Source: a virus (Duplodnaviria > Caudoviricetes). From it: DNA of 64,000 nucleotides. The notes beneath the pieces were generated by a model that was not told the DNA's origin, did not search any database, and saw only the letters and a program-made list of their open reading frames with translations. Each line of letters opens with the position of its first letter. Position 1 is the stretch's first letter. Below, one piece after another: positions 8,949-16,986 of the stretch. A program made the position numbers and the translations under genes. The stretch lies in the IMG/VR virus record IMGVR_UViG_2786546475_000032, positions 39,048 to 103,047 of that record, one strand, 5' to 3'.

Positions 8949-9214
8949 TATTGACTGGACATATATGCATCATATGCATTTTTCATGTAAGACCAACAAC
9001 CATCGAGATAACACTCGATATATTTAATCTCATCATCATTTAAAGATGTATTATTGAGAATCCATTCACCTTCATGAATACATTCTCTAAGTAACGTCTC
9101 AACCTCTTTCGCGTCAGTCTTTTCAACTGACTTTCTAACCTTGTTGCCAAAGTCTTTGATAGCAGTCGAGACGTTTTCAGGGTTGAAACAAAGGCCATCA
9201 TCTTCTGGATACAT
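8948..9214 (-). CDS. hypothetical protein
   Basis: 88 aa, GGAG SD. Confidence 0.7.
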   Translation of the reverse strand: MYPEDDGLCFNPENVSTAIKDFGNKVRKSVEKTDAKEVETLLRECIHEGEWILNNTSLNDDEIKYIECYLDGCWSYMKNAYDAYMSSQ

Positions 9215-10656: not shown

Positions 10657-10685
10657 ATTTACTCCTATGTGCTAAAGGTTTAAAG

Positions 10686-10737
10686 AGAACAGTAGGGAAT
10701 TGAACCCTATAAAACCTGAAACCTTACAGGCTGTTCT
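10686..10737 (-). ncRNA. tRNA-like element F
   Basis: AGAACAG/CTGTTCT acceptor, CCTG/CAGG arm with AAGGT loop, TAGGG-TTCAATT-CCCTA. Confidence 0.75.
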
Positions 10738-11196: not shown

Positions 11197-11284
11197 AAAA
11201 TACCTCATGACTTGGAGCGTTTTGCGCTCGCGTTTATAGGATTGTGAATTTTTTCATGACGTACCGAAGTCTATACATCGAAAA

Positions 11285-11335
11285 AGAACAGTAGGGAATC
11301 GAACCCTATATACCTAGAACCTTCTAGGCTGTTCT
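11285..11335 (-). ncRNA. tRNA-like element G
   Basis: AGAACAG-CCTAGA-AGGT-TCTAGG-TATA-TAGGG-TTCGATT-CCCTA-CTGTTCT. Confidence 0.75.
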
Positions 11336-11342
11336 AAGAGGA

Positions 11343-12040: not shown

Positions 12041-12070
12041 ATTTTCCGATTCATGAATTGAATCAGATAT

Positions 12071-12121
12071 AGAACAGTAGGGAATCGAACCCTATAGAAC
12101 CTGAAACCTTCAGGCTGTTCT
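12071..12121 (-). ncRNA. tRNA-like element H
   Basis: Same architecture as F and G. Confidence 0.75.
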
Positions 12122-12132
12122 AGTTTTCAGTA

Positions 12133-12584: not shown

Positions 12585-13040
12585 TTTAATTTAAACGCCG
12601 AAAGTATGAAACAAGGCGTTTTTTCTAGAGTTAGCGTCAACCCGGTTTCCCGAGCCGACACTATAAAGTTAAGCGCCAAAAGTATGAAACAAGGCGATTT
12701 TTCAACCGCTCAATCTCACCCGCTCGCCTATCCCGCACCATAAACTTAAGCTCCAAAAGTATGAAACAAGCGCTAAATCAATTTCTCAATTTTTACGCCG
12801 TTTCCTTACCCCGTACCTTAAATGTAGGGGCGGAAAGTATGAAACAAGGATTTTTTCTCAATCCCTGTAACCACCCGATCCCCTTTCCCGTACTCTAAAG
12901 TTAACCGCGAAAAGTATGAAACAAGGCCGATTTTCAACCGCCCTTTTCCGTCCCTTCCCTTTTCCCGTACTCTAAATGTAGGCTCCAAAAGTATGAAACA
13001 AGTTTTTCCTCCTAAGCACAAAAAGTATGAAACAAGTTTT
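12585..13040 (-). repeat. tandem array of 77-78-bp promoter-like units
   Basis: AAAGTATGAAACAAG at 12601, 12679, 12756, 12834, 12911, 12988 (plus 13022); the first six have TAnnnT at fixed distance on the minus strand. Confidence 0.85.
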
Positions 13041-13677
13041 TTCTTCATCTTTTTAAAATAATTATATTCCTTTTAGAAATAAATTCATGATATATATTTA
13101 TATATATCACTCAAAAAACCCCACCCAAAAAGAAAAACAAAAAGAAACCCTACTCAGATAGATAAAGAGAATCCAGATATAGAGAAGGAAGATATAGTAT
13201 TAATAGATATGTCTAAAACAAATACACACTAAGACAATACCTAAATAAAGGATACCGACACACATATAACACACAAACCTAGCTCATATTGATACACCTT
13301 TGAAAACCTCTATGTTTTAGATTGTTGTAAATCACCCATATTCAGAAGATTGTTGTAAATTTTGGCTACCGAAAAACGATATCTCAAACTTATACATAGC
13401 TTATAAAGGGGTTTTACACTAATAGGGGTCATATTGATACCCTTAGTTAGATATAGGGGCCATATCGTGTTAATATGGGTTAAAAAGAGGTGTTTAAGGT
13501 TGACTTAGGTCTAAAAGAGGCATGTTTAAGGGGTAGGTCAGAATGATATGGGTTTGTTAGACATATGATAAATGAAGTTTACATAATGCCATCCCCGCAT
13601 ATCATCTGGCGACAGGTTTAAAAGATATGGGTCAGGGTTGGTTGTATTTAAAAGATCTGATATAGATTTGATATATC

Positions 13678-14017
13678 TTACAGCAGGTTCTCAAGCGGCT
13701 TTAGCCGCGTTTTGACCCCTATTTAAAAGATATATGTAGAACGATGATAAAGGCAGTTTACATAATGCCTTCTGAACTTATTCTATATCTCTTAGACATA
13801 TATCTTTTAAATAGGGGTCAAAAAGCTGTCTTACCCTAGGGCCAAAAAAAACGAACAACTATATCTCACCCGCATATATAGCTATCTTTAGGCAATCGTC
13901 TAAATGTACCATTTTTTGATATAGGTCTAAAAAAGTGTAACAAGTTTGGAGTTTTTCCTAGATGCGGATCATAAAATGGCAATTTTTACAGCAGGTTCAC
14001 AAGCGGCTTTAGCCGCG
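13678..14017. repeat. 32-bp direct repeat (13678-13709, 13986-14017) and 28-bp perfect inverted repeat (13710-13737 / 13796-13823)
   Basis: TTACAGCAGGTTCWCAAGCGGCTTTAGCCGCG twice; TTTTGACCCCTATTTAAAAGATATATGT and its reverse complement. Confidence 0.85.
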
Positions 14018-14162
14018 ATATGTAGGAAATAGATATAGGCTATATCAAAAAGATAATGGTCGAGTCCGATAAGTGATATTATGTAAACCAGGCCCCCAGG
14101 GGGTAGAAGGTCCGATAAGTGATATTATGTAAACTCGTTTCACAAGGGGGTCGCAAGCGATT

Positions 14163-14279
14163 TTTTAGATAGGGGTAAAAATGATATACTTCCTTCTCTA
14201 TATCTGTATTCTATATCTTCCTTCTCTATATCTGTATTCTATATCTTCCTTCTCTATATCTTTTTACCCCTATCTAAAA
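14163..14279. repeat. 19-bp inverted repeat enclosing a 29-bp tandem repeat
   Basis: TTTTAGATAGGGGTAAAAA / TTTTTACCCCTATCTAAAA around (CTTCCTTCTCTATATCTGTATTCTATAT)n; inverted copy of part of the unit at 13175-13197. Confidence 0.85.
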
Positions 14280-14319
14280 CAAGGTCCGATAAGACCGCAT
14301 TATGTAAACTTGGTTTAGA

Positions 14320-14600
14320 TGCAAAATATGTGCCAAAAAATTAGGCATGACTTTTGCATATGGAAAAGCTGATAAACCAAGTTTACATAATGCGCGGCTT
14401 GCAACCCCCGTGCCAACTATTCAAAAAATGGTAAAATAATTCAAGGTCCGATAAGTCGTGTTATGTAAACTAGCTGAGTTTACATAATACCCGCAAGCCG
14501 ATCCACAAGCTGGCGGAAATGTCAAGAGAAATTTGTAATTATTTTTATGCAGGAGCCTTTCAAAATCCGTGCCAACTTTCGGTATGCAATCCCTATGCCA
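14320..14600. promoter_or_regulatory. cluster of five sigma54 (RpoN) -24/-12 boxes
   Basis: TGGCACATATTTTGCA (14320,-), AGGCATGACTTTTGCA (14343,+), TGGCACGGGGGTTGCA (14400,-), TGGCACGGATTTTGAA (14559,-), TGGCATAGGGATTGCA (14585,-). Confidence 0.75.
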
Positions 14601-14630
14601 ACTTTTTACACAAATTTCGACTTGCACCTA

Positions 14631-14770
14631 ATTATACCATACTCCGAATATGAATTACAAGATCTTTTTTCAACTTTTTTCAGCGTCCGATAAGTTGTGT
14701 TATGTAAACTTCGGGTTCACAGAATTCGAGCAAGCGATTTTACCATATTGATTTATGGTTTGTCAAAGGG
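14631..14770 (-). promoter_or_regulatory. two sigma70-type promoters with extended -10
   Basis: TTGTAA-N18-TATAAT and TTGACA-N18-TAAAAT, both with TGn before -10 and upstream A-tracts. Confidence 0.7.
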
Positions 14771-14835
14771 TTTTTTCAACTTTTTTAGCGTCCGGTAAGA
14801 GGCATTATGTCAACTTGTCGGGTAGGTCAAAAAGA

Positions 14836-14857
14836 AAGCCCTCAAAAAGAGGGCTTA
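14836..14857. terminator. intrinsic terminator
   Basis: AAGCCCTC-AAAAA-GAGGGCTT hairpin, T-tract on the minus strand after ORF 14887. Confidence 0.6.
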
Positions 14858-14886
14858 TTTAAGATGGGTTGATTTGATATAGATTT

Positions 14887-15222
14887 TTAGATGAGTGCGC
14901 ACTTGATGCGCTCTGGGCGAACCCTCTCTCTTATATCATTGTAAACCATATACATCTCAAAAATGGTCTCTGGAGGGTTAGGGGGATTATTATTACTCTC
15001 ATATTGATACAGGTCGAAACGATACCTATTTCCATTGTTGATCACAGTGATAGTATCACCAGTAATATAAACTTTATTATCCCCCTTGACATAATCATAG
15101 TTCAAGGTGAGCACCTTTCTACCATGCGTAGTTTTGTGACGCTTGCTAAGGGTGTAACCTTCAGCTTTGATCCAATTGTGAATGTCGTAGAGAGCGCTAG
15201 CGATAAGATTAGCCATTTTCAA
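14887..15222 (-). CDS. hypothetical protein
   Basis: 111 aa, between the two dif clusters. Confidence 0.7.
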   Translation of the reverse strand: MKMANLIASALYDIHNWIKAEGYTLSKRHKTTHGRKVLTLNYDYVKGDNKVYITGDTITVINNGNRYRFDLYQYESNNNPPNPPETIFEMYMVYNDIRERVRPERIKCALI

Positions 15223-15283
15223 AATCCTTTTTTGGATTAGGGTTAAAACAAGATAGGTCGGAATGACCTATCTCTATGTGCAA

Positions 15284-15322
15284 TACCCCTTGAGGAATCG
15301 AACCTCGTAACCGGTAGGGGTA
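15284..15322 (-). ncRNA. tRNA-like element I
   Basis: TACCCCT/AGGGGTA acceptor, GAGG-TTCGATT-CCTC T-arm. Confidence 0.65.
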
Positions 15323-15338
15323 AAAGATATATCTCTAT

Positions 15339-15725
15339 TCAGTAGGGTTTGGGATAGTGGTGCTTATTGGTGCCAGTCAGATAGTGTTTAATCTGGCCTT
15401 CCTCATCTACCATCCAATTCCAGGGATGGAAAAACTCGCTACCTGGCTTGTCGCACTGGTAGACCATCATGAGGAATGATTTACTCTGTTTCTTCTCGCC
15501 ATCAAACTTCCACGCGAGGGTATCAGCGTAAGTAACGTAGGCGCTAGGATTGGAGCAGTATTCCTCACGGTTAGCAGCGCTAGGACTACTAACCATCGCG
15601 GTGTACCGCGCGAATGCTTTCTGAGTGTCACTGACCCCTAAGTCAGCGATAGCTTGGGTGGCATACCAGAAGGTGGCGCACGCGAGAAGAATTCCAGCCA
15701 CGATCGTCAAGTCAGCTTTCGTCAT
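15339..15725 (-). CDS. exported or membrane-anchored hypothetical protein
   Basis: Start MTKADLTIVAGILLACATFWYA at 15725 after GAGG SD. Confidence 0.7.
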   Translation of the reverse strand: MTKADLTIVAGILLACATFWYATQAIADLGVSDTQKAFARYTAMVSSPSAANREEYCSNPSAYVTYADTLAWKFDGEKKQSKSFLMMVYQCDKPGSEFFHPWNWMVDEEGQIKHYLTGTNKHHYPKPY

Positions 15726-15974
15726 GTTCGTAACCTCATGTTCATGTTTCAGTGTGTCGCTCTCGTTCAGTACACCCTGAGTGTACATGACGATTGATGA
15801 AAAAACAATACCCCAAAGTAAGAAACAAGGACTTTTTTGCATAGAAAATCCCGAACACCAGCTATGCATCATTCGCATATTTCAAAGGTTGGAGAATGGT
15901 CGTTCGCCAGGGGCATAGGTCAATTTGAGGTATATCTTTTTGAAGGGGGTCGATTACACGGGGGTGCCAAGCCG

Positions 15975-16006
15975 ATTATACCATACCTCAAATATGGTTG
16001 TAAAGC
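15975..16006 (-). promoter_or_regulatory. sigma70-type promoter
   Basis: TTTACA-N18-TATAAT with TGn extension. Confidence 0.6.
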
Positions 16007-16056
16007 ATTATTTCAAACTATTTTCGCACCGATTATGTCAACCCGCGTTATCACTC

Positions 16057-16084
16057 AGTTGACATAATACCGCTTATCAGACTT
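16057..16084 (-). other. dif-like Xer site
   Basis: AAGTCTGATAA-GCGGTA-TTATGTCAACT. Confidence 0.75.
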
Positions 16085-16695
16085 TCTAAAAGATAGGGTA
16101 AGGGTGATATAGCTCTTAAAGAGGTAGGTCGATTCAGCTATATCATTTAGGGGTAGGTCAGAATAGTAGGTGGGAGATTGCTGTATCTCTTTAATAGGGT
16201 TAACGAGAGTGTTCTTACAAGAGGTAGTGTAGAATGATGTGGGTTTAAAAGAGGTATGCTGAAAAGGTGGGTCAAACAAACCCACCTCATCTGATACCCT
16301 CTTTTGGATATGTTGAATCATCTTGTTCAATCCAAGTGTTCAAAACGCTTTTGTATATAAGCTTTCAACACTTCATTTCAACATAAGCTAAAATCCTTAT
16401 ATGCAATTCAAGTGTTGAAAGGCTTATGTTTAGTTGTAAAAATAACCGTAAAAATAATTCTGTTAGTATTAAGTGCAAAACTTGCGAGAAGGGCTCTAGA
16501 AGGCTCGTGAGAGGACGCTATTTCGCTACCCTTGTCAGTGTATTGACCTATCCTTTCAAATGGATTCTGAGCCAATCTGTGGACCCCGTTTCACCCGCAT
16601 AGAATGCGGACTTCCGGCATTATCTAATAGATTTCATGCCTGGATCACAGTTTCAAGAGTTTGTCAAGCGATCGGCCAAAATAGCTTAATTTTCC

Positions 16696-16864
16696 TGGCA
16701 CACACCTTGCATACACTACCTCATCATTACCTATATCTATTTAACCTATCCCTTTTTACACCCATAGCGACTTGGATGCAAAACCTGTGCCAAGCCTGTT
16801 TGTCAACAAAAATCCTGAAGTTGACATAACGCACCTTATCGGACCTTTTGCAAGATCAGTGCCA
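16696..16864. promoter_or_regulatory. cluster of three sigma54 boxes
   Basis: TGGCACACACCTTGCA (16696,+), TGGCACAGGTTTTGCA (16777,-), TGGCACTGATCTTGCA (16849,-). Confidence 0.75.
16819..16846 (-). other. dif-like Xer site
   Basis: AGGTCCGATAA-GGTGCG-TTATGTCAACT. Confidence 0.8.
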
Positions 16865-16986
16865 AGCCTGTTTTGCAAGCTGTTTTTGAAATAAGTTGAG
16901 TTGACATAATCCACGCATACCGCGTCCCTCGTTTCTGATCTACATGCTCGAGTTTTTGTCAAGGGAAAAGAAAGTTTAAAAAAATG

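Follow-up and report, generated by a model that had tools for sequence, protein, structure and literature searches.

The 64,000-nucleotide stretch of phage DNA analysed here (the window) belongs to a 103-kb IMG/VR virus record (IMGVR_UViG_2786546475_000032) with a G+C content of 40%, and between 13566 and 16909 it carries an array of sequences that resemble dif, the chromosomal core site of the recombinases XerC and XerD, interspersed with promoters. Several Tara Oceans assemblies hold the same phage, one of them as a scaffold of 140,523 bp, and recovery of the 37 kb missing from the 103-kb record by exact-protein look-ups closed a circular map at 140,359 bp. A 37-kb piece of the phage is binned in the Tara Oceans metagenome-assembled genome GCA_002715285.1 (contig PAYU01000075.1). 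The structural genes include terminase, a Mu-type portal, an HK97-type capsid protein, and very large tail proteins, and the phage has its own DNA polymerase III alpha, helicase, and primase-like, SbcCD-like, and RuvC-like proteins, as well as RNR, ThyX, PhoH, and a MoxR/VWA pair. Pfam hits and a scan of the 103-kb record and the remaining 37 kb revealed neither a tyrosine recombinase (PF00589) nor a sigma-54 enhancer-binding activator (PF00158), so the lack of a recombinase that a sequence-only reading had noted for the window extends to the whole 140-kb genome. Given this gene content and these two absences, the phage is of the lytic (virulent) type. The best match of its TerL has 29% identity among 50,697 phage records, and there is no cultured relative.

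The pattern GTCYGRTAA-N6-TTATGTMAAC has seven exact 9-6-10 matches in the window, where 0.00 are expected from 100 dinucleotide shuffles of the window; their cores start at 14064, 14110, 14446, 14685, and 14790 on the forward strand and at 16058 and 16820 on the reverse strand. These seven sites have the 11-6-11 layout of XerC arm, centre, and XerD arm, and an eighth full site, at 14282-14310, has a 7-nt centre. In the 103-kb record, 14 of 16 copies of TTATGTMAAC and eight of nine copies of GTCYGRTAA fall in the ~3.3 kb between 13566 and 16909. The sequence-only reading had described eight full sites and six lone XerD-type arms; all 14 coordinates were borne out, as was its list of centres for all eight full sites (F1 to F8):

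F1, 14062-14089, plus strand: dif-like site GAGTCCGATAA-GTGATA-TTATGTAAACC
F2, 14108-14135, plus strand: dif-like site AGGTCCGATAA-GTGATA-TTATGTAAACT, with the centre of F1, in direct orientation, 46 nt apart
F3, 14282-14310, plus strand: dif-like site with the 7-nt centre GACCGCA, over the predicted start of sigma-54 promoter P1
F4, 14444-14471, plus strand: dif-like site with GTCGTG as its centre, spanning about -55 to -82 relative to P2 (sigma-54)
F5, 14683-14710, plus strand: dif-like site with GTTGTG as its centre, spanning about -59 to -86 relative to S1 (sigma-70)
F6, 14788-14815, plus strand: dif-like site GCGTCCGGTAA-GAGGCA-TTATGTCAACT, spanning about -58 to -85 relative to S2 (sigma-70); left half of an inverted pair
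F7, 16057-16084, minus strand: dif-like site AAGTCTGATAA-GCGGTA-TTATGTCAACT, upstream of sigma-70 promoter S3; right half of the inverted pair
F8, 16819-16846, minus strand: dif-like site with GGTGCG as its centre, spanning -55 to -82 relative to P4 (sigma-54) and covering the predicted start of P5 (sigma-54)

All eight centres begin with G, six different centre words occur among the eight sites, and none is a canonical dif centre. The arms are nearly invariant: the XerC core agrees with the consensus at 70 of 72 positions, and the XerD arm varies only between A and C at one position. Between the paralogous modules of promoters S1 and S2, the two arms agree at 10 of 11 and 10 of 11 positions, whereas the centres agree at 2 of 6 and the flanks at 63%. 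Conserved arms with free centres are the signature of two protein-binding arms around an unconstrained centre.

A degenerate form of the pattern retrieved single-copy sites in at least 119 bacterial genomes, which among the matches listed belong mostly to Desulfobacterota ("delta proteobacteria"), Acidobacteriota, Nitrospirota, Myxococcota, Ignavibacteria, and Brevibacillus; among the same matches, 48 of 119 bacterial sites have one of the classical centres TATATA, GATATA, or TGTATA. Canonical centres in the retrieved bacterial sites exceed what chance matches could give, and the phage arms are therefore real dif arms. Both arms of the Myxococcus xanthus dif, AGGTCCGATAA-CATGCG-TTATGTAAACT (Carnoy and Roten 2009, PMC2731167), are matched by four phage sites and are identical to those of F2, F3, and F4. 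Judged by their sequence, the phage sites are dif-type XerC/XerD core sites, as first proposed, with arms that equal the chromosomal dif of delta-proteobacterial-type clades; the match to bacterial chromosomal dif sites had been suggested as a check. They share with chromosomal dif of the delta type the 11-6-11 layout and the positions that vary (Y and M), but the bacterium has one copy, at the replication terminus, and the phage has fourteen sites, attached to promoters in a lytic-type genome and with mutually different, non-canonical centres. The arm sequence predicts the dif type of the marine host, namely GTCYGATAA-N6-TTATGTMAAC around a canonical centre. Marine former Deltaproteobacteria, Acidobacteriota, or Nitrospinota-like groups are conceivable candidates that would suit the type of arm, the sigma-54 promoters, and the G+C content of the phage.

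The six XerD-type arms (L1 to L6) have no XerC arm. Their presence was rightly noted in the sequence-only reading, but the description as lone fails for four of them (13576, 13755, 14380, and 16033), which have a TTATCA partner in a geometry unlike that of dif. This second bipartite element, TTATGTMAACY-N4-TTATCA, has four matches in the window with none expected:

L1, 13566-13586, minus strand: composite half-site TTATGTAAACT-N4-TTATCA
L2, 13745-13765, minus strand: composite half-site TTATGTAAACT-N4-TTATCA
L3, 14370-14390, minus strand: composite half-site over the predicted start of P2, beginning 34 nt upstream of P1
L4, 14477-14487, minus strand: lone XerD-type arm, inverted, 5 nt past F4
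L5, 16033-16053, plus strand: composite half-site TTATGTCAACC-N4-TTATCA, beginning 28 nt upstream of the -35 hexamer of S3
L6, 16899-16909, minus strand: lone XerD-type arm beginning 34 nt upstream of P5

The XDS of the Bacillus subtilis terminus likewise have a conserved XerD arm but no functional XerC arm; they serve binding, not recombination, and unload SMC. The phage arms differ from these in that they adjoin promoters and that four have the TTATCA partner.

The sigma-54 box TGGCAY-N5-TTGCW has six exact matches against 0.11 expected, and all matches in the 103-kb record fall in 14320-16864; a near-consensus seventh box (P3') lies at 14559-14574. The activator for these promoters may come from the host. 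The three best sigma-70 promoters of the region from 11.8 to 18.4 kb are all on the minus strand, starting at 14660, 14766, and 16004, all three with an extended -10 element and, upstream, an A-tract. They form a repeat family that abuts the XerC arm of F5 (S1), the XerC arm of F6 (S2), and half-site L5 (S3):

P1, 14320-14335, minus strand: sigma-54 -24/-12 box TGGCACATATTTTGCA
P2, 14400-14415, minus strand: sigma-54 box TGGCACGGGGGTTGCA
P3 and P3', 14559-14600, minus strand: adjacent sigma-54 boxes, P3 TGGCATAGGGATTGCA at 14585-14600 and near-consensus P3' TGGCACGGATTTTGAA at 14559-14574
P4, 16777-16792, minus strand: sigma-54 box, exact pattern match
P5, 16849-16864, minus strand: sigma-54 box, exact pattern match
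P6, 16696-16711, plus strand: the only rightward sigma-54 box, facing genes at 17080-18246
S1, 14631-14660, minus strand: sigma-70 promoter TTGTAA-18-TGnTATAAT, preceded by an A-tract
S2, 14737-14766, minus strand: sigma-70 promoter TTGACA-18-TGnTAAAAT, with an ACCATA-N6-TATGGT palindrome in the spacer
S3, 15975-16004, minus strand: sigma-70 promoter TTTACA-18-TGnTATAAT, with an ACCATA-N7-TATGGT palindrome in the spacer; predicted to drive two small genes

The palindrome between the -35 and -10 elements occupies 14742-14759 in S2 and 15980-15998 in S3, has a degenerate copy at 14636-14654 in S1, and looks like the operator of some repressor.

Sites and promoters are coupled in position. Seven of the nine leftward promoters have a dif-like element that begins 21-34 nt upstream (gaps of 34, 28, 22, 21, 28, 26, and 34 nt, measured from the -35 element of sigma-70 promoters or the -24 element of sigma-54 promoters to the next dif-like element upstream), and none of 5,000 random placements reached seven promoters, the maximum being five. 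These gaps place the full sites by S1, S2, P2, and P4 between about -55 and -86 relative to the next promoter; the predicted start of the preceding one is also covered in the case of F3, L3, and F8. The near-constant offset upstream of both sigma-70 and sigma-54 promoters was overlooked in the sequence-only reading and points to a role in the early transcription zone.

Four other assemblies span part or all of the array and are 99.99-100% identical to the window. At the level of contigs, where rare events could escape, the five assemblies show no deletion, inversion, or recombinant joint between sites, and F1 and F2 are both present in every assembly that covers them, despite their shared centre, direct orientation, and close spacing. 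Completing strand exchange takes a shared centre, which an array with so many different, non-canonical words does not offer, and such centres would also hinder crossover with the host dif. The earlier inference that the sites serve binding rather than recombination is thus favoured both by the centres and by the identity of the arrays in the five assemblies. The sole "variant" contig owes its difference to a scaffold gap of Ns. The assemblies differ only at ~13319-13360 and ~9173-9207, where alignments break, probably owing to repeat copy number or small indels.

A comparable site occurs in the Escherichia coli phage rV5 (DQ832317). It reads GGTGCGCATAA-TAGGTA-TTATGTTAAAT, its arms are identical to those of the E. 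coli K12 dif at 22 of 22 positions, its centre differs at three of six, and 63 nt from it, in a gene-free zone of 2.6 kb, is an exact sigma-54 box. The 161-nt segment (DQ832317 105041-105201; locus L463 1400-1560) is at least 90% conserved in 119 rV5-like records and is unannotated. Like the present phage, rV5 is lytic, large (~138 kb), and without recombinase, and it combines host dif arms around a non-host centre with an exact sigma-54 -24/-12 box in non-coding DNA; it has one site and one box, in contrast to eight full sites, six XerD-type arms, and six to seven boxes here. Kinship of the two phages was rejected, TerL and MoxR being unrelated, and the combination of dif mimic and sigma-54 box therefore arose independently. 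In both phages, the arm sequences follow a real bacterial dif type. Among the papers searched, we found no description of dif-like sites in rV5 or of dif arrays in lytic phages, which is no proof of absence.

A scan of IMG/VR for inverted XerD-type arms identified unrelated large phages with 14-24 exact copies of GTTKACATAA in ~5-6 kb and no XerC arm. In several of these, the motif lies ~38 nt upstream of promoters composed of an UP-element and TTGACA. The phage G006 (UViG_3300031867_000007; 144 kb, 97% complete) has 21 of its 22 arm copies in 6 kb, and the zone of these arms also holds five chromosomal-type parS-like GTTTCAYRTGAAAC palindromes (64.6-71.9 kb). G007 (UViG_3300031555_004349), whose complete genome of 118 kb has terminal repeats, carries 13 of its 14 copies no more than 4.5 kb from the ends. 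No tyrosine recombinase was found in the whole genomes of G006 and G007 (L310 and L317 were outside this check). Since one motif is common to unrelated phages, only a host-conserved protein such as XerD explains the sharing. The early region of SPO1 has no XerD-type arm, and the present phage has no parS-like site above chance. The arm-rich phages (G006, G007, and loci L310, L314, and L317) are of low G+C content and 118-144 kb, and their arm GTTTACATAAT is clustered by strong promoters.

We propose that the 28-mers are mimics of the host dif that would serve as docking sites for host XerC and XerD, the phage having no recombinase of its own. The sites are built into the early promoter cluster, each full site or half-site between two successive leftward promoters: it begins 21-34 nt upstream of the next promoter, as counted from the -35 or -24 element, and is often on or just past the start point of the preceding one. 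They would act by occupancy, without strand exchange: stable bound Xer complexes would insulate, block, or otherwise tune transcription, whether by insulating tandem promoters from read-through, by repressing or timing the preceding promoter, or by bending DNA for the next, and the 6-bp centres, which are of non-host type and differ from one another, would keep the sites from crossing over with the host dif or among themselves. Binding of XerC and XerD to the sites is probable, and it is the most economical explanation because the arms equal those of genuine dif sites, the genome lacks a recombinase, the XerD arm recurs in unrelated phages, and rV5 copies the arms of its host. What the binding does is inferred, and the composite proposal, that host XerC and XerD bind and act by occupancy within the early promoter cluster, is offered tentatively.

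The array is a real and striking feature that has apparently not been described before. On mobile DNA, Xer sites have so far been known for recombination, in plasmid resolution, in the integration of integrative mobile elements exploiting Xer (IMEX), and in pdif modules; here, a virulent-type phage without recombinase keeps many host-type arms with centres seemingly unsuited to recombination, wired to promoters of the sigma-70 and sigma-54 types. Taken with the rV5-like coliphages, the array suggests that lytic phages repeatedly use the universal XerC and XerD in a way that is undescribed as far as we found, and for which rV5 in E. coli is a tractable experimental stand-in. The virulent Bacillus phage phi29 has binding sites for host Spo0J (parS) and Spo0A, which couple the phage to sporulation. 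It is thus likewise a virulent phage with sites for host chromosome and regulatory proteins that it does not encode, but the host proteins are others, and no logic such as the coupling to sporulation is known for the present phage.

Several points weigh against this proposal. XerC and XerD are not known as transcription factors or promoter roadblocks. The orientation of the sites to the promoters is mixed, with the XerC arm proximal at S1, S2, and P2 and the XerD arm proximal at P4 and S3. Part of the coupling stems from duplication of modules (S1/S2/S3 and P4/P5), which means that the nine promoters do not count as independent cases, and such coupling is equally typical of ordinary transcription-factor operators. 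Relatives add no conservation of the array: a TerL profile search yielded 34 loci, and five records scanned whole (distant relatives, mostly fragments, with one complete genome at 40% TerL identity) have no site. A relative whose MoxR is 45% identical has densely packed small genes and lacks the motif, and the contig of the closest relative, from sample SRR17478310, lacks the array region because it breaks on both sides, beginning at TerL and stopping, after 96.5 kb, 460 nt short of MoxR. Single queries of IMG/VR with the 295-amino-acid neighbour and TerL found no array-bearing relative, the 337-amino-acid neighbour has only three weak homologues, and the AAAGTAWGAAACAAG motif gave single chance matches only in IMG/VR. 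Two loci that looked promising at first, L194 and L131, were rejected as unrelated. A metagenome scan for two sites 65-95 nt apart returned two small unrelated contigs. One 1.5-kb metagenome contig (L465 422-543, JGI Ga0307377_10217266; G+C 0.38) holds another small array, in which two dif-like sites of the delta type, in direct orientation and separated by 94 nt, have the different centres TAAACA and TAAGTA.

The array could instead consist of recombination joints in which the centre serves as an address. Host XerCD would exchange strands only between copies with the same centre, located on sister genomes in a concatemer, in terminal repeats (circularization, as with Cre-lox in P1), or on co-infecting relatives (module swapping), and the differing centres within one genome would stop self-deletion. 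Six centres among eight sites are what such a design needs, and the circular assembly is cut within the same gene-poor zone, so that genome ends could be near. We nevertheless consider this rather unlikely: most of the "modules" would be 46-240 nt of non-coding promoter DNA without genes, F1 and F2 both persist although they share a centre in direct orientation, neither a recombinant joint nor a variant order appears in the five assemblies, the half-sites are incapable of recombination, and XerCD at dif requires FtsK at the septum, as is textbook knowledge. In pdif modules, inverted Xer sites flank gene modules and orientation alternates along the replicon; here the pair F6/F7, the only inverted pair of the array (the other sites are direct repeats around non-coding DNA), brackets a two-gene unit:

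14887-15842, minus strand: two small orphan genes between the inverted F6 and F7, one of 109 amino acids (14887-15216) and one of 128 or 167 amino acids (15339-15725 or 15339-15842)
14836-14856, minus strand: intrinsic-terminator-like hairpin that ends the two-gene unit, directly upstream of F6

The description of the region as non-coding consequently stands for ~2.5 kb to the left and ~1.2 kb to the right, where no gene is called, and fails for 14887-15842. Against 1.84 billion representatives the 109-amino-acid protein proved to be an orphan, neither it nor the 128-amino-acid protein has a match in phages, Pfam and PHROGs searches of the flanking and enclosed open reading frames (ORFs) gave nothing, and blastn of the region against phage and plasmid collections found no match. 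The alternative raised in the sequence-only reading, a pdif-like cassette, is therefore without support, since the 109-amino-acid gene is an orphan that occurs in no second context. The dif modules of Acinetobacter plasmids share with the array many Xer-type sites with differing centres per replicon and an inverted pair around a small gene unit; they differ from it in that the phage intervals are mostly promoter DNA, six sites in a row have the same orientation, the cargo has no second context, and the replicon is a virulent-type phage. IMEX are small, integrase-less elements that enter the host dif through a compatible central region, which sets the attP of CTXphi, VGJphi, and TLCphi types apart from a 140-kb genome with its own replication genes and with centres unlike that of canonical dif. 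The plasmid multimer-resolution sites cer and psi consist of a core site and an accessory sequence of ~180 bp, to which PepA binds together with ArgR or ArcA; they have a single core site, in contrast to fourteen sites in the phage.

That the sites are operators of another DNA-binding protein, a phage early regulator or a host factor, with a likeness to dif that is convergent or irrelevant, is in our estimate quite unlikely, even though a constant position upstream of promoters is typical of operators. The composite element TTATGTMAACY-N4-TTATCA departs from dif geometry, the XerD-type arm itself resembles promoter hexamers (it contains TTGACA/TTTACA and CATAAT), and two lone arms score as plus-strand promoters, all of which would suit such a protein. 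Convergence would, however, have to account for nineteen specified positions, a 6-nt spacing, and asymmetric arms that equal the chromosomal dif of whole phyla, as well as for the exact match of rV5 to the dif arms of its own host and for an identical XerD-type arm in unrelated phages, and the Pfam and PHROGs searches of neighbouring ORFs found no candidate regulator gene beside the array.

An array loaded with XerCD might act not on transcription but on the host's DNA machines, by stopping FtsK-type translocases, by unloading or blocking SMC-type loop extruders, or by titrating XerCD from the host dif. Such roles (a Xer sponge, an SMC unloader or barrier, or a brake in DNA entry) were put forward in the sequence-only reading and are speculative. 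The anatomy that speaks for docking of XerC and XerD speaks for this as well, and the XerD-only arms resemble the B. subtilis XDS; FtsK is said to stop at XerCD-dif, phages reportedly inhibit MukBEF (according to a preprint), and G006 has its five parS-like palindromes in the zone of 21 XerD-type arms. The constant promoter offset would be left unexplained, unloading of SMC by XerD is known only in Bacillus, and the present phage has no parS-like site, and we regard such a role as very unlikely. In a more specific version, which we judge highly improbable, the array with host XerCD and with sigma-54 RNA polymerase in closed complexes would be a cis-acting barrier or unloader against loop extruders of the SMC, MukBEF, or Wadjet type and against FtsK. 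It would then be a DNA-encoded counter-measure made of borrowed host proteins only, and one common to other phages, given XerD arms with parS-like sites in one of them and a dif mimic with a sigma-54 box in rV5. Finally, inert scars of Xer-mediated insertions (IMEX-like or pdif-like) or of captured host or plasmid DNA, for which the slightly raised G+C content and atypical skew of the array region and the direct orientation, as in IMEX arrays at dif (textbook knowledge), could be cited, deserve almost no credence, as the arms are near-perfect while centres and flanks diverge, the DNA has no similarity to plasmids or phages, the promoter offsets are constant, and the segments are too short for elements.

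The surroundings of the array contain further repeats. A 28-nt unit is repeated three times in tandem at 14189-14272, with inverted TAGGGGTAAAAA words on either side, and an inverted, 86%-complementary copy of this repeat lies 1 kb leftward at 13168-13209. The motif AAAGTATGAAACAAG has 11 copies in 8.8-15.8 kb (12588-13046; also 8859, 11938, 12016, and 15808), seven of which form a tandem array with a period of 77-78 nt; an inverted copy lies at 16988-17001, and 5-7 further copies occur elsewhere in the genome. The copies checked adjoin genes, just upstream in the reading direction, and some are flanked by covarying short stems; the motif is probably a phage-specific promoter. Repeated 57-nt elements on the minus strand (10681-10737, 11280-11336, and 12066-12122; also 8914 and 10033) comprise a perfect tRNA T-arm (GGTTCGATTCCCT) and an acceptor-like end, and ARAGORN called no tRNA in the window. 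In the early region, a group I intron lies at 906-1114 on the minus strand (Rfam RF00028, 64.8 bits, full-length model match).

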